DNA from: an uncultured Candidatus Saccharibacteria bacterium
Lineage (GTDB): Bacteria; Patescibacteriota; Minisyncoccia; SW-4-49-11
Assembly: GCA_964585065.1 (NCBI GenBank)
Contig: CAZPCB010000002.1
Location: forward strand, 68,886 to 132,885
DNA length: 64,000 nucleotides
Reading direction: 5' to 3'
Shown here: piece by piece, positions 1 to 63,531 of the stretch
Numbering within the stretch: position 1 is the stretch's first letter
How the letters are laid out: each line of letters starts with the position of its first letter
Program-made: the position numbers and the translations under genes
Notes under the pieces: generated by a model
Told to the model about the DNA's origin: nothing
Database searches by the model: none
The model's input: only the letters and a program-made list of their open reading frames with translations

Positions 1-287
1 AGCTTGGCATCTCCCCCACTAGCGGGAATTTGAAAGGTTTGCCCCTTATCGAGAGAATAATATTTTATACTATTACTGGTATCAATAGTAGCGTTGACAA
101 TAGCTTTGTCTGAAATTTTGGTAGCAAGACGAGTAGTATCAGCTGGCTTATTATTATCTTTAACAGTATCGGCGGCCTTCTCAGTATTGCGAGCACCAAT
201 ATACCCATAAATGAGTATACCAATAACAATAAGAGGTATAACCCCAATGGTTAGTATTAGTACTATTTTGTTCTTAAAGAATTGCAT
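1..287 (-). CDS. Hypothetical membrane-anchored protein (5' part; ORF runs off window start). Begins MQFFKNKIVLILTIGVIPLIVIGILIYGY then a soluble Thr/Asp-rich region
   Basis: Own translation of minus strand: ATG at 287-285, no stop before position 1; single N-terminal TM helix; immediately downstream of VirB4-like ORF in same orientation (not in supplied ORF track because it is open-ended). Confidence 0.4.
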   Translation of the reverse strand, partial: MQFFKNKIVLILTIGVIPLIVIGILIYGYIGARNTEKAADTVKDNNKPADTTRLATKISDKAIVNATIDTSNSIKYYSLDKGQTFQIPASGGDAK

Positions 288-293
288 ATGATT

Positions 294-2123
294 TTATAAG
301 TTTAATGAGAATGGGTCTGAGTTAGCTTCGTCAGTAACTTGAGCTTTGGCGGCCTGAATCTTGAGTAATTGTTCAGGGTCCGAGGTTATAATCTGATCTT
401 CTCCATATGATGCTACCACCTTGATAGCCGCATGTTTAAGTCCTGCAAAGAATATCCCCTCTCCCACATCTGACTCTAGAAGAAGGAATTTTTCTTCTTC
501 AGTAAGATAAAAGGTATCTTTAATAATATCTATAGAGGCTGGAGATTGTTTCAAGAGAATTTGTATTGATGAGTTGGTCAGAATAGCTTTTCCATATTCT
601 GAGGCGAGGAAATCAGCAATATCCTGAGTAATAGTGGTAAGCCCAAGATAATATTTACGGGCTCTTTTGGCAAGTGAGAAAAGAAAAGAAGCTACCGCTT
701 TGTCCTTCATCATAACCCAAGCTTCATCTACAACAAGAATACGCTTTTTGAGAGTTCTTCGGATCTCTTTCCATATATATTGAGTTACCACAAACATAGC
801 TAAAGGCTGAAGAGCATCCTCCATATCTCGAGTATTGAATACTACTAATTGATTAGCAAAATTAATATTGGTAGGTTCATTTACAAAACCACTAAAGCTC
901 CCAGTAGTATATTTGGATAGTCGAATAGCGAGACTTTCTCCCCCTTCCATATTATTGAGAATATTTTCTAAGTCAGAAAGAGTAGGAATATCTTTATTTT
1001 CATAATTTGGTGACTCAAGACTAATATCTTTGCTCGCATATGTCTCATACAAAGCTCTATCTAATACAGCTTCTTCTTCAGCAAGGAATTTGTCTTTTTC
1101 ATTTTCTCCTTGAAGCATCAGTTTTAACATACTCAAAAGATCCGCAATATTGGATTTGAGTAAGTCGGCGGGATTTTCATCATCGCGAGGTATAGGAAGG
1201 TCAAAAGGATTAATATGCTGATTGGAATTCAGTGATATTTTGATAAATGTCCCTCCCACAGCTTCGGTAAGATAAGAATATTCATTTTCAGGGTCAATAA
1301 CCAGTACATCTACATTGAGCATAAGATGTCTCAAAATTTCAAGTTTAGCTAAATAGCTTTTCCCAGCTCCGGACTTTGCAAAAATAACTTCATTAGCATT
1401 TTCCATAGAAAATCTATCAAAGAGAATAAGACTATTATTATGGCGATTAATTCCATATAAAATCCCTTTATTAGAGGAAATACTAGCTGAAATAAAGGGA
1501 AATGTAGTAGATAGCGGAGATGTATTAAGATTATTGGCAATAGCTAAATCATCTTTGAGAAGAGGAATAGTAGATTGAAATCCTTGCTCGGTTTGGAAAA
1601 GACAAGGCTTGGAATATACCATTTTGGTTTGAAGCATACTGTCTATTTGGGCAATATTTTTCTCTAATTGCGGTAGGCTATCTGCATAAACGGTAATATA
1701 TAATCCAAAGCGGAAAAATCTCTCAGTACCCTGCTGTAATTGATCTCGAAGATTTTCAGCATCCTGATAAGCAGTTTCTACCATAGGGTCTCGAACTAAT
1801 CCCTTTTCTTGCGCAATACTGATTTGCGCTTGAAAGCGTGTTACTTGGGTTCTGAGATTCTTTAAGATAACCCCACTATCCATAGGATACAGGAACATAG
1901 AAATATCCAAGACATAATCAAGGGTAATAAGTGGGCTAAACCATCCGGTTACCAGGAATCGAGGATATGTCATCACAAAAATAGTTCGGGCAAATTGAGA
2001 ACCAATTTGAATATATTTAGGGTCTACCAAAATACTTGCAGGTGCCAAAAGATCCCGAAGAGTATTTTGCCCTTTGAGGAAATCTGCAATTTCTGGAGTA
2101 GTTTGTGCTTGTTTCTTTGCCAT
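294..2123 (-). CDS. virB4: VirB4/TrbE/TraC-like type IV secretion (conjugative transfer) ATPase, C-terminal 609 aa part containing the NTPase domain
   Basis: Walker A FAKSGAGKSYLAK, Walker B-like ILVVDEAWVMM (DEAW typical of VirB4), central PRFLVTGWFSPL segment; architecture places Walker A about 470 aa into the reconstructed 834-aa protein as in VirB4. Confidence 0.7.
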   Translation of the reverse strand: MAKKQAQTTPEIADFLKGQNTLRDLLAPASILVDPKYIQIGSQFARTIFVMTYPRFLVTGWFSPLITLDYVLDISMFLYPMDSGVILKNLRTQVTRFQAQISIAQEKGLVRDPMVETAYQDAENLRDQLQQGTERFFRFGLYITVYADSLPQLEKNIAQIDSMLQTKMVYSKPCLFQTEQGFQSTIPLLKDDLAIANNLNTSPLSTTFPFISASISSNKGILYGINRHNNSLILFDRFSMENANEVIFAKSGAGKSYLAKLEILRHLMLNVDVLVIDPENEYSYLTEAVGGTFIKISLNSNQHINPFDLPIPRDDENPADLLKSNIADLLSMLKLMLQGENEKDKFLAEEEAVLDRALYETYASKDISLESPNYENKDIPTLSDLENILNNMEGGESLAIRLSKYTTGSFSGFVNEPTNINFANQLVVFNTRDMEDALQPLAMFVVTQYIWKEIRRTLKKRILVVDEAWVMMKDKAVASFLFSLAKRARKYYLGLTTITQDIADFLASEYGKAILTNSSIQILLKQSPASIDIIKDTFYLTEEEKFLLLESDVGEGIFFAGLKHAAIKVVASYGEDQIITSDPEQLLKIQAAKAQVTDEANSDPFSLNL

Positions 2124-2126
2124 ATA

Positions 2127-2804
2127 CTAAGTAATATCTAATTCAGCTAAATCATGAAGAGATTCAGTTGGTCTGGAATCAGGATTATAAAATGAATAAT
2201 ATAATTCAATTAATTCTTGAGTATTGAGAGGTGTCATATAAATTCCAGCCCGCTTTAGTCCATACATTACTCCATTTACTCTCTGCCAAAGCTGAGTTTT
2301 ATATTTCTCAAATTCTTGCTTATTATAGCGAACTGCAATTTTAGGGTTAAGCGCATTGCTGAGTTTATCAAAAAGACCTTCTTTTATCTCAACCGGATCA
2401 AAAGGAATAACTACATAAAAGGTTTTGTTTACAATATTAGCATCCGCCACCAATTCCTGAATAAATTGAGAATATTCTCCAATTTGAAGACGTAATAAAT
2501 CATTTTGCTGGGTTTGTTGGAACTCAGAAAGATAGTTGAGATACCCATTAATATTCAAAACCCTGGAGCTTACCTGTATTTGAAGAGGGAAGTCAAGAGA
2601 ATTAATAAAATTCTGATAAGCATAAATAATAGCATCTTGCTCATCAGAAGATTTGAGGTCAAAATTAATAGAAGACGTCATCAAAACAGCCCTCAATCCC
2701 CCATCTTTGAGAATCACCACACTGTCTTGAATAGTGTCGATAGATAAGTACTTTTGCGTACTAGTCTCCGGCTTATTTTTAATATTTGATTTTTTATTAG
2801 CCAT
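2127..2804 (-). CDS. N-terminal 225-aa segment of the same VirB4-like protein (separated from the ATPase ORF only by an in-frame TAG plus one codon)
   Basis: Same frame as 294..2123 (TAG TAT ATG junction at 2129-2121); N-terminal region LRAVLMTSSINFDLKSSDEQDAIIYAYQNFINSL resembles N-termini of Gram-positive conjugative VirB4 (Tn916 Orf16/PrgJ-type) as far as I recall. Confidence 0.4.
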   Translation of the reverse strand: MANKKSNIKNKPETSTQKYLSIDTIQDSVVILKDGGLRAVLMTSSINFDLKSSDEQDAIIYAYQNFINSLDFPLQIQVSSRVLNINGYLNYLSEFQQTQQNDLLRLQIGEYSQFIQELVADANIVNKTFYVVIPFDPVEIKEGLFDKLSNALNPKIAVRYNKQEFEKYKTQLWQRVNGVMYGLKRAGIYMTPLNTQELIELYYSFYNPDSRPTESLHDLAELDIT

Positions 2805-3132
2805 ATAGTGAGTATATCATATGGCAATAGTTTTGCAAAGAAGAAGAAAGAGGTTTTTATTTTGAATACATAATCAAAATATGCTACTATTGACTCGCAA
2901 GGTATCAAAATCCATGAATCTTCTCACCACTCTTCGAGGTAATATTGCGGCTATAGGGAGAATTTCATCTAATCTCCAAATCTCTTTAGACAAAAAACTA
3001 CCCATTCTCCCAGATTTAAGGAGAAAGCATTTATCCCATCTAAGAATAGAGGTTGCTGAGTTAAAGAGAATGGTGATTCTTTTGGAGGCAGACATAGATC
3101 GAATATAGAGAGTTTACATTTCATCTCAATAC

Positions 3133-3160
3133 CCTGTCACAAGGCAGGGTTATTTATTTT
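3133..3160 (+). terminator. Rho-independent terminator-like hairpin (CCCTGTCACAAGGCAGGG + TTATTTATTTT)
   Basis: 5-bp GC stem with T-rich tail on plus strand just after small plus-strand ORF 2881..3108. Confidence 0.4.
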
Positions 3161-3975
3161 AATCCCTGATATAGCTCTATCCAATTTTCTATAGTGAGAT
3201 TCTCGGGGCGGAGGGAGAGGAGGTTTTGAATATTTTGGGTATACTCCCCTATTGATTTATTGAGTTTAGTCTTGAGAGAGGATGAGATTTTTTTGCGCTT
3301 TTGTTGAAAGGCTAATTTGGCAAGTTGTATAATTTCTTCTCGATTATGTTCGACATAGCGATTATGGGGGATTAGTTGTATGAAGCTAGAGTCTACCTTG
3401 GGCTGGGGGTAAAAGCATGCTTTAGATATATGAGACAAAAGTTTAACATCGGCATATATATTGACACTGAGCTGGAATAGGGATTTCTCATGAGACAGGA
3501 GATTATTGGCTACCTCTTTTTGAATAAGGAGATTAATACTCTCAGCAGGATTATTTCTATCTACGAGTAATCTGATTATGGCTCCGGTAATATGATAGGG
3601 TATATTAGCAATAACCACATATGGTGTCTTGATGGTATCTATAATATCTTGGGATTTGAGTATATCTTGATGATATACGGTGAGATTGTCTGGGTTGCCT
3701 AGTACACTAGGGAGTATAGAGGCAAAAGTTTTATCGAGCTCTACGGCGATGACAGGAACCTTTTGTTGTATCAATAATTCAGTGAGTGATCCAAGTCCTG
3801 GACCTATTTCTAATAAAGTAGAATCAGTGCTTATATTGATTTTATTAATAATTTTGATAAGTAAATCTTTTTCAATAAAAAAATTCTGGGATAAAGACTC
3901 TAAGGGTTTTATCTGATATTCTTTTAATAAGGATATAATTTGGGATTGTGTCATAATGCTTGATAAGCTTGTCAA
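3154..3975 (-). CDS. rsmA: 16S rRNA (adenine1518/1519-N6)-dimethyltransferase KsgA/RsmA
   Basis: SAM-binding LLEIGPGLGSLTE, catalytic ANIPYHITG (NxPY) motif, length 273 aa. Confidence 0.85.
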   Translation of the reverse strand: MTSLSSIMTQSQIISLLKEYQIKPLESLSQNFFIEKDLLIKIINKINISTDSTLLEIGPGLGSLTELLIQQKVPVIAVELDKTFASILPSVLGNPDNLTVYHQDILKSQDIIDTIKTPYVVIANIPYHITGAIIRLLVDRNNPAESINLLIQKEVANNLLSHEKSLFQLSVNIYADVKLLSHISKACFYPQPKVDSSFIQLIPHNRYVEHNREEIIQLAKLAFQQKRKKISSSLKTKLNKSIGEYTQNIQNLLSLRPENLTIENWIELYQGLK

Positions 3976-45171: not shown

Positions 45172-47001
45172 TTATGCTAGGGGAAGATTTGAGGGCGGAG
45201 AAAGTGTTGGATTAGCTTGTAATTCATTATCCAATGTATAATTGGGGTATAATTGTTCCCACAGCTCTTGGGGAGAATTATTTGGTGTTTTTAAATTCCT
45301 AAGATCAAGTAATCCAAATTGAATCATTTCTCTTGCAGTCTCAAGATTAATTCCAGATACTAATATGAGATTTTTTAGTTCAGGATATTTGAGAATTTCT
45401 TCTATTACAGCTTTCTGTTCCAAATATACCGTATCTTTGGTATCAGAAATCTGGGTATCTGTATTGTCAAAAGAAGAATTCCTGAATAATCTAGTTGAGC
45501 CGCTAAGTGCTGTTTTTATATATTCCTTGAATTTAGATGGACTTACTTGTTTCGATTGTAGAGAGCGAATACTTTCATAATATGTTTTTACACAATCTAT
45601 ATAAGTACCCCCAGATTGTTTGGTAGCCATGGCTCTCAGGTAATTAGGTTGAGGAGGGCTTTCATATCCAAATAATTCTTGAGATATTTGATCTTGATAA
45701 TACATAGCCCCACCTTCTTGGAATAATTCAGCTCTATCTCCGGCAATTTGACTGGAATGTGTATAGAGAGGTAAACCAATTTGGGCAGTATTTTCTCTTT
45801 GAAGAATATGAATTATTTCATGAGTAGCTGCCTTGGTAATTATTTTCTGAATATCCATTTCGGTAGCAGGGATTAATAATGTTTTACTTTGACTATCTAT
45901 TGCAAGAGTGTCTTTACCCGGTCTAATATAGCATCTCCATTTATTATCTGCCGGGTTTATATTTTTGGTTACTTGTTCAGCATCGGCGGGATATTCGCTT
46001 AATAGGTCATAGCTTGCGAGAATTTGGTCTAAATATTGTTTTGCCATTTCAGGAGTGATATTCTTCTCTTCTAATTTTTCTTGGTCTAGGCCTTTTTGTA
46101 AGAGGATTTGAGGCTTTTCTTGATTAATTGATTTGTTTAATTCAGCAATATGATCAGCCATTGTTAATAGATGATTATCTACTTGATTATAATTACCCGT
46201 ATCAGTATCAAGTGTACTTACTCCATATATAAATTTATCTAATTTGTATGGGGGTTTATGTGGAGTATGGGATTCTTCGCTCCGTAAAAATGTTTCTTGT
46301 TCTTTAGTTTCTGCAATGATGACATTAATTCTTTTAATTAATGCTTGTACGCGAAATATTTTAGCATGTATTAAAGCTTTACTTATATCGGTAGTGTCAG
46401 AAGCCTCTTCGGCATATAAGTCAGATCGCTTTTGTTTTAATTCTTGCCTTATTGCTTCTAACCCTTCAATTTTTGCTGTTAAGTTAGCAGGATATTGAAT
46501 ATAGGTGAGTTTTTCTGGGTTTTCAATATTCTCTATATCAAGTTCTCCCGTATCAGGATGAATATGTTGAGATAAAGTCTCTACCATAGTATCAGTATTC
46601 CAATCCGTACTCATTTTTACTAAATCTGTTATGATTTTGGGTTTTAATGTTCTCAGAATTGCAATATTTTCCCTAATATCAATGTCTCCTTCAAGGGATA
46701 CAAATTCAGGAATTTCTTTTAAAATAGCCTGACCCTCTGATGTATCAAAATACTCGGGATATAAAACTTTTTTACCAGTTGCTAACTTATAGTATTCTGC
46801 TAGTTTTTCTACAAAAGGATTCTCAAATTCTATTAAGTTCTGCTTTTCCTCCTCAGAAAGTATTTCCTTTTTTCTTTCACCAGATTCATATTGAGCTATT
46901 TCATATAATAATATTTGAGCTGAATAGGATGGACGCTCTGGATATAATTGAGGTTTATGTTCAGATTTAGGTTCAGTATTCTCAGAAGATTCTATCGACA
47001 T
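45172..47001 (-). CDS. DUF1704/MATCAP-like gluzincin metallopeptidase homolog (HExxH + QEGGA motif)
   Basis: ATHEIIHILQ (HExxH) followed about 30 aa later by AELFQEGGAMYY resembling the QEGLA motif of TIGR02421/DUF1704. Confidence 0.45.
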   Translation of the reverse strand: MSIESSENTEPKSEHKPQLYPERPSYSAQILLYEIAQYESGERKKEILSEEEKQNLIEFENPFVEKLAEYYKLATGKKVLYPEYFDTSEGQAILKEIPEFVSLEGDIDIRENIAILRTLKPKIITDLVKMSTDWNTDTMVETLSQHIHPDTGELDIENIENPEKLTYIQYPANLTAKIEGLEAIRQELKQKRSDLYAEEASDTTDISKALIHAKIFRVQALIKRINVIIAETKEQETFLRSEESHTPHKPPYKLDKFIYGVSTLDTDTGNYNQVDNHLLTMADHIAELNKSINQEKPQILLQKGLDQEKLEEKNITPEMAKQYLDQILASYDLLSEYPADAEQVTKNINPADNKWRCYIRPGKDTLAIDSQSKTLLIPATEMDIQKIITKAATHEIIHILQRENTAQIGLPLYTHSSQIAGDRAELFQEGGAMYYQDQISQELFGYESPPQPNYLRAMATKQSGGTYIDCVKTYYESIRSLQSKQVSPSKFKEYIKTALSGSTRLFRNSSFDNTDTQISDTKDTVYLEQKAVIEEILKYPELKNLILVSGINLETAREMIQFGLLDLRNLKTPNNSPQELWEQLYPNYTLDNELQANPTLSPPSNLPLA

Positions 47002-54348: not shown

Positions 54349-56178
54349 ATGGTAAAACAGTTAAATAAAAACCCAAAGCTGTTTATATTGCTTGCATCGT
54401 TCGTCGCCATAGGTTTGATATCATTTGCGGGTACCTTTAATGTTGTGCATGGGAGGCAACAACAGCAACAACAGCAGCAGCAAACATCTAAATGTAATAA
54501 GTGTGGCCAATGTACAAATTGTTTGGCTTCAATCCAAAACAACTGGAGTAGGTTCCTTTGCGTGATTTTTCCACAATTCTGCTCGAGTTTAACTACATGT
54601 ACAGCTCCTGCTGTACAGCCATCCCAACCTTTTGTATGTACAGATGTACCAGTTTCTTACGTAGAAAGACTTTCACAATATAATATTAATGGTCTAGATG
54701 CTTCAATTTCAAGTAATGGTAAATATACAGTAAAGGGTATGACTACACATGGATCTTATAGCTGTGATACTATATTAAAAGCTATACTTGATTATAACAC
54801 TCCTCCTCCGACTAGTACATTTTCCGGGTACCAGTCTCTCTGGAACCGCCCTGTTCAACCTTCTACTCCTAAGTATAATGTTTGTGCCTATCCGAGTAGT
54901 GTCAGTGAACAGCGTCTAGAAAGAGTAAATTGGTCCTTTAATAATATGACAGCTGTCAAAGATTGTGGTAATGTAAAAGGAGTATATGCAGAATGCAATA
55001 ATGGAGCTGTTAATTTTGGTGCTTATCCAGGTTTTACAACAATAGGTGCAATTGCTAGTCCTTATCAAGCATTTACAGATCATAGCACTATAGTACAAAA
55101 TGCAGCCCCTAATCAATATAGATGGGGTGGTTTGTATCAGTATGGTATAAGCTCTGACAATGCAAAGCCAGGACCATATTCTTTTTACAGCACATCTTAT
55201 AATTATGAAACATTAAAATTAGCATTTAACTATGAAATGGTATACAGTAGTCTGCAACAAGCTGGTCCCTGTTGGTCTCCATTTCCATCTTTCAGAGAAT
55301 GCCATAGAGTACATTACTTTACCTATACTCCAAGAGTGCAACAGCCCAATATTACTCTAAACTCATATCTAATTAAGCATAGAGATAGACCAAGTCAACT
55401 GATTTATCGAAATAGTCCAATTAGAAAATCTTGGCAAATAGAGAATGCTAATTCTGGAAGTTGTAATATAGAAACGAAAAATTCTTCGGGAGAAGTTATA
55501 CCATTTCTTTCTAAAAGCGGATTGAATATTGACTTTAAACAAGGTAAGCAAATTGTAGACTTCTTACCTATTAATGGTGCAACAGGACAATATCTTGAAA
55601 AGGTAGATCAGAATGCAGATTATACAATTGGATATGATCCAAATAGAATACAGCCCGGTGTTTATAAGAGTATATTAACATGTAGTCTTAGTATAAACTG
55701 CTCATCAGGTTCGGGTACAGATGATTGTAAGAGAATCTCTCCAGGTAATCCTTATAGTAGCCCAATATCAGTTTCTGTTGATCAAGACTTTACAATATCT
55801 CCAGATCAAATAGTTACTTTGGCAGCGTCAGCTAAGCCAACTATCGTTTATAATAAATTTAGAAAAACTAAAATACTAGCTAATACAAAAGGTGCAAACG
55901 TGAATGATAAGCATAAGTATACACTTACAAAAATCCCTATAGGGTATAAGTTGACTTCATCTGCGACAATAGATAAGGTGGCTGATGCCTCAGGTACTAC
56001 TAACGCCTTCTGGGATGTTGAATTAGTTGTTAATCCCCAAACAAATGGAAGTGATGCAATAATAGGTGCATCAGAATTTGTTGTAGAAATGACTGATGAG
56101 CCATATGATAATCTTTATACGGCTAAAGCAAAAGTAACTTATCTTGGCAATAGAGATGTAAGAGAAGTTGCTAAATAA
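54349..56178 (+). CDS. Hypothetical secreted Cys-rich protein with N-terminal anchor and polyQ tract (609 aa)
   Basis: TM/signal FILLASFVAIGLISFAG, then Q9 tract, CNKCGQCTNC and many further Cys. Confidence 0.4.
   Translation: MVKQLNKNPKLFILLASFVAIGLISFAGTFNVVHGRQQQQQQQQQTSKCNKCGQCTNCLASIQNNWSRFLCVIFPQFCSSLTTCTAPAVQPSQPFVCTDVPVSYVERLSQYNINGLDASISSNGKYTVKGMTTHGSYSCDTILKAILDYNTPPPTSTFSGYQSLWNRPVQPSTPKYNVCAYPSSVSEQRLERVNWSFNNMTAVKDCGNVKGVYAECNNGAVNFGAYPGFTTIGAIASPYQAFTDHSTIVQNAAPNQYRWGGLYQYGISSDNAKPGPYSFYSTSYNYETLKLAFNYEMVYSSLQQAGPCWSPFPSFRECHRVHYFTYTPRVQQPNITLNSYLIKHRDRPSQLIYRNSPIRKSWQIENANSGSCNIETKNSSGEVIPFLSKSGLNIDFKQGKQIVDFLPINGATGQYLEKVDQNADYTIGYDPNRIQPGVYKSILTCSLSINCSSGSGTDDCKRISPGNPYSSPISVSVDQDFTISPDQIVTLAASAKPTIVYNKFRKTKILANTKGANVNDKHKYTLTKIPIGYKLTSSATIDKVADASGTTNAFWDVELVVNPQTNGSDAIIGASEFVVEMTDEPYDNLYTAKAKVTYLGNRDVREVAK
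54457..54483 (+). repeat. (CAA/CAG)9 trinucleotide tract encoding Q9
   Basis: caacaacagcaacaacagcagcagcaa read directly. Confidence 0.9.
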
Positions 56179-56214
56179 GCATAAAAGTTTTAAAAACACG
56201 ATAGAATTCATTTT

Positions 56215-56961
56215 ATGGTAAGCAGTAAAAATATTTTACTTATTTTCATACTATTACCCATATGTATATATTTAACTGCTACATCATATGGAATACTTCA
56301 AAAAGTACAGTTTTATCCAGAATGTCAGAATTACAGTTATGAGGAAAGAAAAAATTTCCTAAGTAAAACAACATATATTCATGGCACTATTACGGCTATA
56401 AAAGATGATAAAATAGATGTATATGTAAATTATAATCCTAGAAATAGATGGAAATGTTCACAGATGGAATCTCCATATAAAGACTATTTAGGAGCTACCA
56501 CAAAGATATATTCAGTTAACTTAAATCAGAATACCCCAATTTACTCAATGTATGAAGCTATTAGTACAAGTATTCCAAATGACCATACTCCTAGGCAAAA
56601 TCCTTCTCCTGAAGTCCAAATACCATCAGAAAATACATTTACTGGTTTAAGGTATAAAAAAGAAGATCTCACAATTGGATATAGAGTTGCAGTACTAGCA
56701 TCAAAACCAGTATTGAAAGAAAATTTATTTGATGCTGAATTGGTATTGATTTATCCAGAAAGAGATATTACATATTCTGCAATAATAACTATAATTATAG
56801 TTATTATTGCAGGTATAGGAAGCTATTACACAATAGAAGTTATTACTCATATACTTTATTATTTCACGAAAAATACCAATATACTTCTATTCTCTACAGT
56901 GATAAGACCAGTGGGAGCTATTGGGTTTTTTATATGGTATTTTTTATCACATTATACTTAA
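56215..56961 (+). CDS. Hypothetical bitopic membrane protein (N-terminal TM, soluble middle, C-terminal TM pair)
   Basis: Hydrophobic segments at both ends; very AT-rich. Confidence 0.35.
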   Translation: MVSSKNILLIFILLPICIYLTATSYGILQKVQFYPECQNYSYEERKNFLSKTTYIHGTITAIKDDKIDVYVNYNPRNRWKCSQMESPYKDYLGATTKIYSVNLNQNTPIYSMYEAISTSIPNDHTPRQNPSPEVQIPSENTFTGLRYKKEDLTIGYRVAVLASKPVLKENLFDAELVLIYPERDITYSAIITIIIVIIAGIGSYYTIEVITHILYYFTKNTNILLFSTVIRPVGAIGFFIWYFLSHYT

Positions 56962-56964
56962 TTT

Positions 56965-57561
56965 ATGAGATTACTTCAAAATTTTGTAGAAAATATATAT
57001 AATTTTATACCATTCGATAGTCAGCTTCTGACGGGATATATTATAATGCAAATAATAATTTTCACAATTATTAATATGTTTATACTATTAATTCAAATAT
57101 TAATAGTAAGATCTAAAATAAAAGAAACATTATATATAACTATCCCAATTCTTTTAATTAATAAAATATTAATTTTACCTATTCTCAACGATATAGTATT
57201 TATAACCCATGTATCATTAATATATGTTATGGTGTTCATAACCATATCAACTTTATTAGATATAGAAAGCTTTAAACTATATACGAATGATTACAAAAAA
57301 TTATGTAAATTTTATCAAATCATATCTATAATTTTACAAATACTTATTATAATTATTTTTATAACTCAGCCAATACTAAATCTACAAACTATCATTGGAA
57401 TAACTATATATTCGATACCCTTGATAATTGATATTGTTAATTTTAAATCAAATTTTAAAAATACGTTTAGACTAAATATTTATAAATATATATACCAATA
57501 TATCACTATAACTATATTAATTTTATTATCAAAAATAATAGTCCCTATACATTTTATGTAA
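56965..57561 (+). CDS. Hypothetical highly Ile-rich polytopic membrane protein (198 aa)
   Basis: About 6 TM helices; codon usage extremely AT-biased. Confidence 0.35.
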   Translation: MRLLQNFVENIYNFIPFDSQLLTGYIIMQIIIFTIINMFILLIQILIVRSKIKETLYITIPILLINKILILPILNDIVFITHVSLIYVMVFITISTLLDIESFKLYTNDYKKLCKFYQIISIILQILIIIIFITQPILNLQTIIGITIYSIPLIIDIVNFKSNFKNTFRLNIYKYIYQYITITILILLSKIIVPIHFM

Positions 57562-57589
57562 AACAACATAAAAGAACTCTCTCATATAA

Positions 57590-57679
57590 TAGTATCTCAA
57601 CTAAATCTAGTACTATTAATATCTCTTTACCCTGCCCTGGAAAATCAGTGATGAATTAAGACGGGCTTTAGGGGTGTGA
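57590..57679 (+). pseudogene. Ghost 3'-end fragment of a DUF59/SufT-like gene (encodes YLFTLPWKISDELRRALGV*)
   Basis: Roughly 75 percent nt identity and clear peptide similarity to the end of 53998..54285 (TFTPPWKVSDELREALGI*), including matching stop position. Confidence 0.5.
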
Positions 57680-57683
57680 ATTC

Positions 57684-57711
57684 TTGACAAGTTTTTGGAG
57701 GGTGCTATACT
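57684..57711 (+). promoter_or_regulatory. Sigma70-like promoter TTGACA-16-TGcTATACT
   Basis: Consensus -35, extended -10, 25 nt upstream of 57736 start. Confidence 0.45.
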
Positions 57712-57735
57712 AATTTATATACATAAAATCAATAT

Positions 57736-58662
57736 ATGAAATCACATCTTTTATCTATAATAGCAGCAAGTATTATTGTACTTGGTGGATCATTTTTAGT
57801 GGTAAATACTATTTTAGCTAAGGATGAGGCTTCAGAGTTAGATAAAAAATCTCAAGAATCACAACGTGAATTTGAGAAGCAGGCACAAAAAGTAAGAGAA
57901 ATAAAACCTCAAGAAGATACAAAACGCCCACCTTTGGTAAAGAAAGAGGATTCAGAAGATGATAATTCAGAAGATGAATCACAAAAAACTTTATTAGAGC
58001 GACAAAAAGAGCAAAATCAGCAATTAATGGAAAGACAAAAAGAACAAACTAAAAAAATGTCTGAAAAAACAAGAGAAGCTGAGAAGCAAGGTCTAGAGAA
58101 AAAAGATAAGGAGGATAGCCCAAACCCAAATGATGAAGGCCAAGATGATTCAGTAGATTCTTTGTCTGAGCAAATTACTGTAGGGCCAGAGCGAGAGAAG
58201 AAAATCAAGGATAAGTGTCAGGAAATTAGTAATAAAATTGCTGAACATCAAAATGAATTAAAGGCAAAAGCTGAAAAAAGACTTGGTAAATATAATAAAA
58301 TTATTACTCGATTAGAAGCAGTTTCAACAAAACTAGCAGATTTAGGTGTAGATGTTACCACATATAATGGATATGTAACTGAGGTAAAGTCTCAAGTTGC
58401 TGTATTAAATCAATCAATTAATACCTATATCGCTTCTCTTGGTACTAATACTACTCAACTTTGTACTAAGGAAAAAGCTGCAACAGAATTAAATACCCGA
58501 AAAGCTGATTTGAAGGTTATTATTGCCCAAGATAAAGCAATAAGAACTTATATCAAAGAAACAATAATTCCTTACCTCAGAAGTATAAAACCGCAACAAC
58601 CAACTTCAACAGAACAAGAGAATACAACAGTACCGTCCTCAAACCCCGCCCCAATCCAATAA
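57736..58662 (+). CDS. Secreted/anchored coiled-coil protein rich in K/E/Q (308 aa)
   Basis: N-terminal hydrophobic segment, long charged heptad-like region. Confidence 0.4.
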   Translation: MKSHLLSIIAASIIVLGGSFLVVNTILAKDEASELDKKSQESQREFEKQAQKVREIKPQEDTKRPPLVKKEDSEDDNSEDESQKTLLERQKEQNQQLMERQKEQTKKMSEKTREAEKQGLEKKDKEDSPNPNDEGQDDSVDSLSEQITVGPEREKKIKDKCQEISNKIAEHQNELKAKAEKRLGKYNKIITRLEAVSTKLADLGVDVTTYNGYVTEVKSQVAVLNQSINTYIASLGTNTTQLCTKEKAATELNTRKADLKVIIAQDKAIRTYIKETIIPYLRSIKPQQPTSTEQENTTVPSSNPAPIQ

Positions 58663-62512: not shown

Positions 62513-63046
62513 TTAGGCTACAGTGCTTGTCCAAATTTCCTCTACATCATCTAATTCTTCTAGGATTTCAATGAGATTGTCTAATTTTTCTTGGGCCTCT
62601 TCAGTAATTTCAGTAGGTATATTTATTTTATATTCTTGTTCTCGAATAATTTCCTCAAACATCCAAATCACTGAACCACTCGCACCAAGACTACCTCCAT
62701 TTTTGGATAAAAGATGTCGTAAATCAGCCACCGTACGATTACCATTATCAGTATATGTCTTAATGAGAAGACCGACCCCCTCAGGCCCAAAACCTTCATA
62801 AATCACAACTTGCCCATTGGTATTGGCTGCCTTTTCTAATATACGACTAATATTATCTTTTGGCATATTAACTTCTTTTGCTTTTTCGAGAGCTAAACGG
62901 AGTTCCGGATTTATAGCAGGGTCGGTAGAACCTTTGCGAGCAGCAATTTGAATAAGTTTTACTACTTTAGAAAAATTCTGGGCTTTGAGCTTATCAGTGG
63001 CAGCTTTTTTATGTTTGATTTTAGAAAATTTATTATGTCCAGACAT
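62513..63046 (-). CDS. yebC: YebC/PmpR (TACO1) family protein, minimal 177-aa form lacking the central domain
   Basis: MSGHNKFSKIKHKKAATD N-terminus; start moved to M5 of track ORF. Confidence 0.75.
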   Translation of the reverse strand: MSGHNKFSKIKHKKAATDKLKAQNFSKVVKLIQIAARKGSTDPAINPELRLALEKAKEVNMPKDNISRILEKAANTNGQVVIYEGFGPEGVGLLIKTYTDNGNRTVADLRHLLSKNGGSLGASGSVIWMFEEIIREQEYKINIPTEITEEAQEKLDNLIEILEELDDVEEIWTSTVA

Positions 63047-63104
63047 AGATAAAAGCATTTAATATACTTCTATTATAGCATAAAATAGGCTATTTTGCAA
63101 GATG

Positions 63105-63141
63105 AGATAAAGTAAAAACCCCCCAAGCATTAGCATGGGAG
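63105..63141 (-). terminator. Terminator-like hairpin on minus strand overlapping the stop codon of 63130..63531 (CCTCCCA..TGGGGGG + T5)
   Basis: Minus-strand GC stem with G:U followed by TTTTT. Confidence 0.4.
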
Positions 63142-63531
63142 GGATTTGATTTGTGCAAGCCATGTATTAGCTTGCTGGAGATATTTGCGGCGGTCTTTGC
63201 TGTAGACCTGTGGTTGAGCTTTTAGCTTATCAGGTAGGGCTAGCTGATTTTCAATCAGCTCAATGAGGGTTCCTTTAATAGGCTTCCCCTCAATAATTAC
63301 TCCCCTATGTGCTGCTTCCAAGAATATCACCATGTTGGCAATGCTCCCAGAGCTGAGCTTGAAGAAGGCTTCAAAACGCTCCCCTAAAAACACATAGTCA
63401 GTTTTGGGAATTGAGAGCGGGATTCTTGCGGGGAAAGTGGGGTCCCTTGTTCTCAATAAATCGTAAACCTTTTGAAGGACTTGAGCTTCGGTGAGGCCTT
63501 GTTCAGAGAGAGCCATGAGATTAATGTACAT
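63130..63531 (-). CDS. Hypothetical protein (133 aa), locally GC-rich
   Basis: ORF with higher GC than neighbours, own terminator; no recognised motif. Confidence 0.35.
   Translation of the reverse strand: MYINLMALSEQGLTEAQVLQKVYDLLRTRDPTFPARIPLSIPKTDYVFLGERFEAFFKLSSGSIANMVIFLEAAHRGVIIEGKPIKGTLIELIENQLALPDKLKAQPQVYSKDRRKYLQQANTWLAQIKSLPC

Follow-up and report, generated by a model that had tools for sequence, protein, structure and literature searches.

At the start of the analysed window (the whole 64-kb stretch of DNA), three genes follow one another on the minus strand: a trsD-like gene (ORF1), a virB4 ATPase gene (ORF2), and the 5' end of a β-propeller gene (Table 1). ORF1 and ORF2 share one reading frame, with the junction letters ACT TAG TAT ATG; coordinates and letters confirm the layout of the original prediction, in which two same-frame minus-strand ORFs were parted by TAG-TAT before an ATG. 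The ksgA gene lies directly upstream of trsD, and yidC, rnpA, and dnaA are found 7-9 kb downstream.

Table 1. Position of the genes, motifs, and junction elements at the trsD-virB4 locus.
Feature	Position	Strand	Remarks
trsD-like gene ("TraC-like", Pfam PF26593), 225 aa, soluble	2127..2804	-	Profile and structure matches
trsD stop, TAG	2129..2127	-	End of the 225-aa ORF 2127..2804
Spacer TAT, 3 nt, from trsD stop to virB4 start	2124..2126	-	In-frame spacing
virB4 start, ATG	2123..2121	-	First codon of the 609-aa ORF 294..2123
virB4 ATPase gene, 609 aa, with the latter half of the N-terminal domain and the C-terminal RecA-like ATPase domain	294..2123	-	
Walker A, AKSGAGKS, ORF2 residues 249-256	1356..1379	-	Residue 474 of the concatenated protein
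Walker B, ILVVDEAW, ORF2 residues 462-469	717..740	-	
Propeller gene, first 95 codons of a 373-aa gene cut at the window edge	1..287	-	Full gene in loci L001 and L002
Promoter-like site, TTGCAA - 16 nt - (TG)TATACT	2811..2838	-	Consensus scan; ends 6 nt before the trsD ATG

The product of ORF1 shows homology to the N-terminal ~190-280 residues of complete VirB4 proteins, and both ORFs are collinear on full-length NCBIfam VirB4 profiles, with ORF1 at positions 91-281 and ORF2 at 282-889 of Mbov_0397, and at 12-120 and 171-728, respectively, of CD1110. This agrees with the combined VirB4-type protein that had been proposed for the two ORFs. A comparison of ORF1 with the NCBIfam TrsD/TraD family (NF041427) gives an alignment over positions 7-172 of 201 (28.1 bits, E 1.6e-6), far under the curated cutoff of 200 bits, which places it outside the family as curated; judged from sequence, the kinship is one of remote homology only, in line with the literature. 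The assignment to PF26593 is taken from a precomputed table, which lists matches (E ≤ 1e-5) for the identical 225-aa protein of L001 and L002 and for nearly all of the best 120 of 2142 ORF1 homologues, whereas a local Pfam search of ORF1 gave no match. These best 120 homologues span 145-247 aa, with identities down to 48%. When the family is reduced to representatives at 50% identity (3771), 148 of the best 150 are unfused to VirB4, and these comparisons make the 225-aa protein a family of its own. Natural TrsD-VirB4 fusions are rare (2 of the best 150), being P0292 (797 aa, three Ca. Colwellbacteria MAGs) and P0315 (898 aa), both collinear with ORF1 plus ORF2.

The sequence profile of ORF1 retrieved nothing significant from the PDB, and VirB4 surfaced by fold comparison alone. 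TrwK/VirB4 structures fill the first 14 places among the PDB matches of the AlphaFold2 model (pLDDT 75.6), with probabilities of 0.98-1.00 and E values of 1e-3 to 2e-2, after which the next matches jump to E > 0.1. No transmembrane segment was found in the ORF1 product.

On the other hand, ORF2 alone belongs to the CD1110-family VirB4 (NF045971), reaching 365.3 bits (cutoff 325) over positions 171-728 of the 752 in the profile. It also matches P-loop_TraG (81.6 bits), DUF87, and AAA_10 above the Pfam cutoffs, with CagE_TrbE_VirB marginal at 20 bits, as well as the C-terminal domain of VirB4 in PDB 4ag5 (E 1.4e-40), and residues 313-734 of TrwK align to ORF2 residues 126-546. Its RecA-like ATPase domain carries intact Walker A and Walker B motifs, the first ~470 aa into the concatenated protein and the second of the DEAW type, as had been predicted. 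Nonetheless, the N-terminal and ATPase domains, which lie on one polypeptide in VirB4 as generally defined, are parted here by the stop between ORF1 and ORF2, and with the TIGR00929 VirB4_CagE and TraC models ORF1 plus ORF2 score under the curated cutoffs. Two further ORFs of the window (45172..47001 and 54349..56178), considered as VirB4 paralogues and rejected, have no similarity to VirB4 or to one another and returned no family match; their length of 609 aa, equal to that of VirB4, is a coincidence.

The 57 genes of the window end in TAA (43), TAG (8), or TGA (6), and TAG is therefore an ordinary stop here. One of the other seven genes ended by TAG is in frame with an unrelated neighbor. 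Among 23 closely spaced same-strand gene pairs in the window, 12 are likewise in frame, and four pairs have the exact spacing of stop, 3 nt, and ATG. Moreover, trsD and virB4 are in frame in only 5 of 22 related loci. Since these frequencies correspond to the chance level, the shared frame is a chance product of a 3-nt intergenic spacer, no more than a coincidence. Also, the missing Shine-Dalgarno (SD) motif before virB4 was dropped as a sign of translational coupling, because nearly the whole window is devoid of such motifs (SD-like in 2 of 57 genes).

The recovered related loci, all from Patescibacteria MAGs, show how constant the two-gene state is. In the GTDB genomes of Paceibacteria and Saccharimonadia, trsD adjoins virB4 as a separate gene in 22 of 22 loci, with spacers of 4, 4, 5 (seven times), 7, 1, 4, 6, 39, 42, 108, 214, and 448 nt, and of -1 (TAATG overlap) in three related loci. 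In the closest relatives (97% protein identity), TAA and 4 nt stand between the two genes, which are out of frame, and virB4 begins with a conserved ATG-GCA-AAR; the ancestor of the lineage was thus split already. Strong purifying selection acts on both genes, with a dN/dS of 0.00-0.04 for trsD and virB4 alike at a dS of 0.24-0.75 in the comparisons retained (L006, L007, L011, and L018). Values near 1 for virB4 (pN ~0.71) against L010, L013, and L014 were discarded as misaligned, the codons having been paired ungapped despite indels.

The gene order ksgA-trsD-virB4-orf365/373-Wzy-...-yidC-rnpA-dnaA is kept down to 66% TrsD identity, and the GC content of the trsD-virB4 region is uniform with its surroundings. 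Upstream of trsD, the block TTTRCAAAA...TGnTATAMT is the sole one conserved among 10 relatives in an otherwise unconserved region. It suggests a putative promoter at the site listed in Table 1, from which, given the short distance to the trsD ATG, the operon transcript would be leaderless or near-leaderless. The 349 nt between ksgA and trsD were considered as the site of a small gene or RNA, and this was rejected; no Rfam family matches this spacer, and its ORFs of 51-75 aa are taken as spurious because the region, save the promoter-like block, is unconserved among relatives.

Beginning 6 nt past the virB4 stop and probably co-transcribed with virB4, the third gene had been described as encoding a small membrane protein, but what the window holds is actually the 5' end of a membrane-anchored β-propeller gene. 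Its 373-aa protein is predicted to have a transmembrane helix at the N terminus and a 7-bladed β-propeller outside the cytoplasm (AlphaFold2 pLDDT 86.5); the structure matches are generic WD40/TolB-like propellers, and the Pfam match to PD40 is weak. Only 46 homologues were found, and both the close relatives and L033 keep the gene 3' of virB4.

A Pfam/NCBIfam search over window ORFs of at least 100 aa and 10 kb of flank, which diverged small membrane proteins could escape, recognized no VirB6, PrgI/VirB3, or VirB2-like pilin and neither a coupling protein nor a relaxase. The only matches were prepilins of the type IV pilus type and, at a distance of 27 kb, a generic SLT-domain protein. The earlier statement that few T4SS parts can be seen in the vicinity is thus correct for this lineage, also past the window start, where VirB6 and a relaxase had been suggested as genes to look for. 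Because no further parts were recognized, the remainder of the apparatus is unseen in this lineage; it may be located elsewhere, be too diverged for detection, or have been lost.

The original prediction had offered three readings of the junction. Among these, a two-piece VirB4 is the correct one, both ORFs being collinear on the profiles, whereas a nonsense mutation and a sequencing error are refuted by the 22 split loci, the five independent assemblies that contain the junction, and the dN/dS values. A very recent nonsense mutation in an intact virB4 of ~835 aa, leaving a young pseudogene, would account for the single TAG between in-frame ORFs, and rare fused TrsD-VirB4 proteins do exist elsewhere in Patescibacteria. 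However, the other 21 related loci are split too, the relatives at 97% identity are out of frame and give ORF2 a conserved start of its own, both ORFs are constrained (dN/dS 0.00-0.04), and in-frame neighbors are common (12/23 pairs), so that such a mutation is improbable in the extreme. Nothing beyond the in-frame geometry speaks for a TAG introduced by sequencing or assembly error into a truly intact virB4. Four Logan assemblies, each from a separate sequencing run (SRR23086376, SRR8942238, SRR23548137, and SRR23548128), and the NCBI MAG JBIIRM010000006 share the identical junction TTAGATATTACTTAGTATATGGCAAAGAAA, which leaves an error with a negligible probability.

Read-through of a programmed TAG, giving a minor fused TrsD-VirB4 isoform beside the separate proteins, is very improbable as well. 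Although TAG-TAT-ATG would yield an in-frame fusion of 835 aa, similar to those of Ca. Colwellbacteria, the in-frame arrangement is absent already at 97% protein identity, and a conserved read-through context was not seen. Moreover, no suppressor is present among the 7 tRNAs of the window, and 6 of the 7 other genes ended by TAG meet another in-frame stop within 4-43 codons; on these grounds, and with TAG ending 8 of 57 genes, reassignment or suppression of this codon was rejected. Finally, the pair could be in decay and derive from an integrated conjugative element or a competence apparatus, as the absence of any other recognizable T4SS gene, coupling protein, or relaxase within ~74 kb would allow. 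The purifying selection on both genes, the core-gene synteny near dnaA, and the uniform GC content argue against this, no integrase or repeat boundary was noted, and VirB4 is present in 2417 of 3035 Patescibacteria genomes (PMC12102498). We consider decay very unlikely, and the relic of a conjugative element that had been suggested is not supported at what is a chromosomal, origin-proximal T4SS locus with conserved ksgA-trsD-virB4-...-rnpA-dnaA synteny.

Based on the evidence presented here, we are highly confident that positions 1..2804 correspond to the core ATPase operon of a chromosomal Paceibacteria T4SS, in which VirB4 is split over two anciently separate, probably co-transcribed genes and the TAG and the shared frame are accidental. 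The apparent VirB4 cut by an amber codon is the usual two-gene form, and since this form of TrsD-like protein plus VirB4 is already published for Patescibacteria, the finding is an ordinary one. Translated from a single mRNA on which stop and start lie close together, the TrsD-like and VirB4 polypeptides would be produced at matching levels and would associate non-covalently, rebuilding the N-terminal domain of VirB4, which in the R388 structure mediates protomer dimerization, membrane association, and contacts with VirB3/VirB8 (PMC12857230). The ATPase hexamer would then power T4SS assembly or substrate transfer. The T4SS of Patescibacteria has no relaxase and is probably used in the epibiotic lifestyle, not in conjugation. 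A further and rather doubtful possibility is that in this freshwater Paceibacteria family the origin-proximal locus has been pared to trsD-virB4 plus the propeller, the latter being a new extracytoplasmic T4SS component in the position that cell-wall hydrolase, VirB8, or pilin genes have in other clusters, or else that the TrsD/VirB4 motor serves a different envelope machine. Both variants are allowed by the absence of VirB6, PrgI, and pilin genes within ~74 kb and by the synteny and probable co-transcription of the propeller gene.

The locus is relevant mainly to annotation. A stop that parts the halves of a known protein in frame mimics a pseudogene or an error, and here it is normal gene structure; pipelines should neither merge nor flag the trsD-virB4 pair. 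The secretion ATPase concerned is widespread in Patescibacteria, and Ca. Southlakia epibionticum, the single species tested, cannot do without its T4SS (Wang et al. 2023, PMC10633639). The biology itself, with the VirB4 N-terminal module as a separate subunit and a T4SS without relaxase, is already published, and mild novelty is confined to three points: Firmicutes relatives that are collinear and split in the same way, the few re-fused proteins, and a propeller gene beside virB4 that is specific to the lineage.

Among known systems, the locus resembles the Patescibacteria-clade T4SS (Quiñonero-Coronel et al. 2025, PMC12102498), where TrsD, remotely homologous to the VirB4 N terminus, is the most abundant component (2272 homologues, 1664 of them adjoining virB4) and the loci lie near dnaA/ksgA/rnpA without a relaxase. 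The VirB4 proteins of that T4SS form a monophyletic Patescibacteria clade nested in MPF_FATA. The TrsD-like gene right before a ~600-aa virB4, the chromosomal position near ksgA/rnpA/dnaA with no relaxase nearby, and the assignment to Paceibacteria are all found here; further parts near virB4 (VirB6, PrgI/VirB3, and pilin) are not. In this, the local set of trsD-virB4 plus a lineage-specific propeller differs from the full cluster of Moraniibacteriota (L034), which runs VirB6/TrbL - PrgI - TrsD - VirB4 - T4SS_pilin.

A comparison with single-chain VirB4 proteins (TrwK of R388, CD1110 of CTn2, and Mbov_0397 of the Mycoplasma ICE) reveals the same order of parts, with the modeled ORF1 fold corresponding to part of TrwK and the ATPase domain and Walker motifs conserved in ORF2. 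The difference is that the chain is divided here inside the N-terminal domain, near TrwK residue 190 as extrapolated from the ORF2 alignment. The two-gene VirB4 is ancient and the norm in Patescibacteria, and it is present too in some monoderm conjugation systems. In TrsD/TrsE of staphylococcal pGO1/pSK41 and TraD/TraE of the Inc18 pIP501 type (MPF_FATA, pGO1 subclass), a ~200-aa gene also precedes a ~650-aa VirB4-type ATPase; in L032, for example, a 209-aa gene is followed after 10 nt by a 653-aa "TrsE protein." The NCBIfam TrsD profile aligns end-to-end with ORF1, but at 28 bits against the 200-bit cutoff this is remote homology only, and a single TraD sequence of the pIP501 type gave no significant hhalign match to the ORF1 family. 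Those systems differ further in being plasmid-borne conjugation machines with relaxase and coupling protein.

The closest non-Patescibacteria relatives found, as far as sequence comparison goes, are gene pairs of Firmicutes megaplasmids with the same split point and gene order. C. botulinum pCLJ carries PrgI, a "TraC family protein" of 257 aa (hhalign probability of 98% against the ORF1 family), and an ATP-binding protein of 620 aa. Pontibacillus NZ_CP062975 carries proteins of 274 aa and 621 aa, the latter a CD1110-family VirB4, to which ORF1 (33% identity, E 4e-26) and ORF2 (35% identity, E 1e-113) are related; a Firmicutes CD1110-type protein, at 35% identity, is the best VirB4 match outside Patescibacteria. 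The genes of these pairs overlap by 11 nt, and the clusters around them also contain PrgI, pilin-like, and cell-wall hydrolase genes, whereas at the present locus a 3-nt gap separates trsD from virB4.

The trsD-like gene (ORF1) and virB4 (ORF2) are, judging from the evidence, natively two separate genes. In the ORF list and reading of the minus strand of 1..3600, both ORFs lie in one frame, as in the original prediction, with the TAG of ORF1 followed by TAT and the ATG of ORF2 (ACT TAG TAT ATG). ORF2 is a VirB4 ATPase. Its Walker A motif, AKSGAGKS, is found at residue 249, corresponding to residue 474 of the concatenation (about 470 had been anticipated), and its Walker B motif, ILVVDEAW, contains the expected DEAW. 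Moreover, the NCBIfam profile of the VirB4-like conjugal transfer ATPase, CD1110 family, matches ORF2 with 365 bits (cutoff, 325) over positions 171-728 of 752, and Pfam P-loop_TraG, DUF87, and AAA_10 all exceed their cutoffs. ORF2 also matches the VirB4 C-terminal domain (PDB code: 4ag5) with an E of 1.4e-40, its residues 126-546 aligning with residues 313-734 of TrwK, the VirB4 of R388.

ORF1 is the N-terminal part absent from ORF2. In the Mbov_0397 VirB4 profile (894 positions), ORF1 covers 91-281 and ORF2 282-889; also, ORF1 aligns with positions 12-120 of the CD1110 profile and spans 7-172 of the TrsD/TraD profile (201 positions). Both ORFs therefore match VirB4 families of NCBIfam and not unrelated ones, the point on which a profile check had been proposed. 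An AlphaFold2 model of ORF1 built from 38 family members (pLDDT 75.6) was compared with the PDB by Foldseek, where the top 14 matches are all TrwK/VirB4 chains (probability 0.98-1.00; TM-score on query 0.34-0.55), being E > 0.1 for the matches after them. No transmembrane segment was found in ORF1. Among the other TrsD representatives, many have 300-440 aa, which implies an uncharacterised C-terminal extension.

The single in-frame amber codon had been read as a recent nonsense mutation, a sequencing error, or a two-piece VirB4, and only the last reading holds. A sequencing error is wrong since an identical TAG-TAT-ATG junction is present in four Logan assemblies, built from different runs, and in a Lake Mendota NCBI MAG (JBIIRM010000006), which also rules out an assembly error. 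A nonsense mutation is likewise wrong because in the nearest relatives, whose proteins are 97% identical, the junction is ACC TAA TAC T ATG, out of frame, so that the common ancestor was already split. Moreover, purifying selection acts strongly on both genes, with dN/dS of 0.00-0.04 at dS 0.24-0.75 against three related loci (L006, L007, and L018) and 0.025 for trsD against a fourth (L011). The suggestion of a relic was also mistaken. As for the shared frame, it is unremarkable in such a compact genome, where 12 of the 23 closely spaced same-strand gene pairs of the window are in the same frame, somewhat above the expected one-third, and four pairs, trsD/virB4 among them, have a stop, exactly 3 nt, and ATG. 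The window has a GC content of about 35% throughout, and its 57 likely genes end in TAA (43), TAG (8), or TGA (6), all three being used as stops, so the genetic code is standard.

The two-gene state is widespread. Searched against 5.8 billion proteins, ORF1 has 2142 homologues; the top 120, down to 48% identity, all measure 145-247 aa and belong to Parcubacteria/Paceibacteria, Moranbacteria, Portnoybacteria, and Minisyncoccia. A profile search across 1.84 billion representatives yielded 3771 matches, and 148 of the best 150 lack a VirB4 fusion. In GTDB genomes of Paceibacteria and Saccharimonadia, the trsD-like gene precedes virB4 in 22/22 loci, only five of them in frame. The distance from stop to start is 4, 4, 5 (seven loci), 7, 1, 4, 6, 39, 42, 108, 214, and 448 nt, and stop and start overlap as TAATG in three loci. 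The 448-nt spacer, from a Patescibacteria MAG, holds a 123-aa gene (L022:1616-1987) whose product presumably resembles the four-helix-bundle "23S rRNA intervening-sequence" proteins. Re-fused TrsD-VirB4 forms are rare within Patescibacteria: one of 797 aa (P0292) in three Ca. Colwellbacteria MAGs and one of 898 aa (P0315), present on four contigs. Each is collinear with ORF1 plus ORF2, which is independent evidence that the TrsD-like protein and VirB4 act as one unit.

The exact 609-aa protein is also encoded on L001, a 56-kb contig that matches the window at 100% identity across 2804 nt and has the order infB, DUF4446, ksgA, trsD-like, virB4, a 373-aa gene, a 75-aa gene, two Wzy_C genes, glycosyltransferase, flippase, yidC, rnpA, and dnaA; this order is retained in a related locus (L033) despite only 66% TrsD identity. 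Since the 373-aa gene directly follows virB4 there (L001:10096-11217, starting 6 nt past it), the ORF predicted downstream as a small membrane protein gene is its 5' end; the membrane helix stands, the small gene does not. The full-length product has a single transmembrane helix at its N-terminus, and AlphaFold2 confidently predicts a 7-bladed beta-propeller (pLDDT 86.5), with generic WD40/TolB-like propellers as structural matches. The protein has only 46 homologues, none of the known T4SS families matches it, and its gene is syntenic with trsD-virB4 across this Paceibacteria family.

The window has no recognisable VirB6, PrgI/VirB3, VirB2-like pilin, coupling protein, or relaxase; apart from three prepilin-type proteins and an SLT-domain protein, its remainder is housekeeping (mutS/mutL, dnaJ, nrdR, pnp, ribosomal proteins, rpoA, suf genes, zwf, and ruvC). 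In L034, a complete Moraniibacteriota genome, the same pair lies within a cluster of the order TrbL/VirB6, a 518-aa protein, PrgI, TrsD, VirB4, and, further on, T4SS_pilin. The SLT-domain protein could have a VirB1-like role, and no link between it and a T4SS was found. The three large prepilin-type proteins are paralogous and resemble giant pilins or pseudopilins of the type IV pilus type. The only loose end is the lineage-specific beta-propeller gene beside virB4, along with the lack of other recognisable T4SS genes in the vicinity.

Features of the window around and beyond the trsD-virB4 pair
Feature	Position	Strand	Remark
ORF1, trsD-like, 225 aa	2804..2127	-	
ORF2, virB4, 609 aa	2123..294	-	
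Propeller gene, 5' end	1..287	-	
ksgA-trsD spacer, 349 nt	2805..3153		no Rfam match
GC-rich hairpin	3131..3150		just past ksgA
SLT-domain (lytic transglycosylase) protein, 180 aa	29669..30211	+	27 kb from virB4
Prepilin-type, 439 aa	34452..35771	+	N-terminal cleavage/methylation signal
Prepilin-type, 902 aa	40129..42837	+	same signal; 13 delta-60 repeats
Prepilin-type, 398 aa	60695..61891	+	same signal
Further 609-aa ORF	45172..47001	-	no Pfam/NCBIfam family; no similarity to VirB4 or the next
Further 609-aa ORF	54349..56178	+	as preceding
GC dip, 0.27	56001..58000		elsewhere ~0.35
Membrane-protein ORFs in the dip	56215..56961, 56965..57561		no family
Stop + 3 nt + ATG, infB/rbfA	6012/6016		
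Stop + 3 nt + ATG	49122->48477		with TAG
Stop + 3 nt + ATG	56961/56965		
Genes with a TATAAT-like box directly before ATG	62513..63058, 63130..63531		examples among several genes; also trsD

Among relatives, the ksgA-trsD spacer is unconserved except for a promoter-like block, TTTRCAAAA...TGnTATAMT, ending 6-7 nt ahead of the trsD ATG. The spacer's 51-75-aa ORFs, one of them a gene of 75 aa annotated in Logan contigs, are probably not real genes. Only 2 of the 57 window genes have an SD-like motif upstream, so its absence ahead of virB4 is uninformative; this pattern, together with the TATAAT-like box of several genes, suggests SD-independent or leaderless translation genome-wide.

Two conserved, selected genes, collinear with single-chain VirB4, with intact ATPase motifs and tight stop-start spacing in most lineages, are consistent with one transcript, possibly leaderless, that would yield both subunits in matched amounts. 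TrsD would then dock onto VirB4, completing its N-terminal domain, and the hexameric ATPase would energise a relaxase-less T4SS. In R388, protomers dimerise through the VirB4 N-terminal domain, which also touches the membrane and VirB3/VirB8 (PMC12857230).

Finally, the trsD-like plus virB4 arrangement is already published (Quiñonero-Coronel et al. 2025, PMC12102498). In that study, VirB4 is present in 2417 of 3035 Patescibacteria genomes as a monophyletic clade nested in MPF_FATA, TrsD, a remote homologue of the VirB4 N-terminus, is the commonest T4SS component, with 1664 of 2272 Patescibacteria homologues adjoining virB4, and T4SS loci lie near dnaA, dnaN, rnpA, ksgA, and rpmH, with relaxases mostly absent. 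The TrsD homologue of Ca. Southlakia epibionticum is listed as essential, and this species requires its T4SS to grow as an epibiont (PMC10633639). The split VirB4 is also found outside Patescibacteria. Inc18 plasmids have a 209-aa gene ahead of that for the 653-aa TrsE protein, the 209-aa product matching the ORF1 profile without significance in hhalign. The same split is seen in C. botulinum pCLJ, where PrgI is accompanied by a 257-aa "TraC family protein" (hhalign probability of 98% against the ORF1 family) and a 620-aa ATP-binding protein, and in a Pontibacillus megaplasmid, with a 274-aa protein 33% identical to ORF1 and a 621-aa CD1110-type VirB4 35% identical to ORF2.
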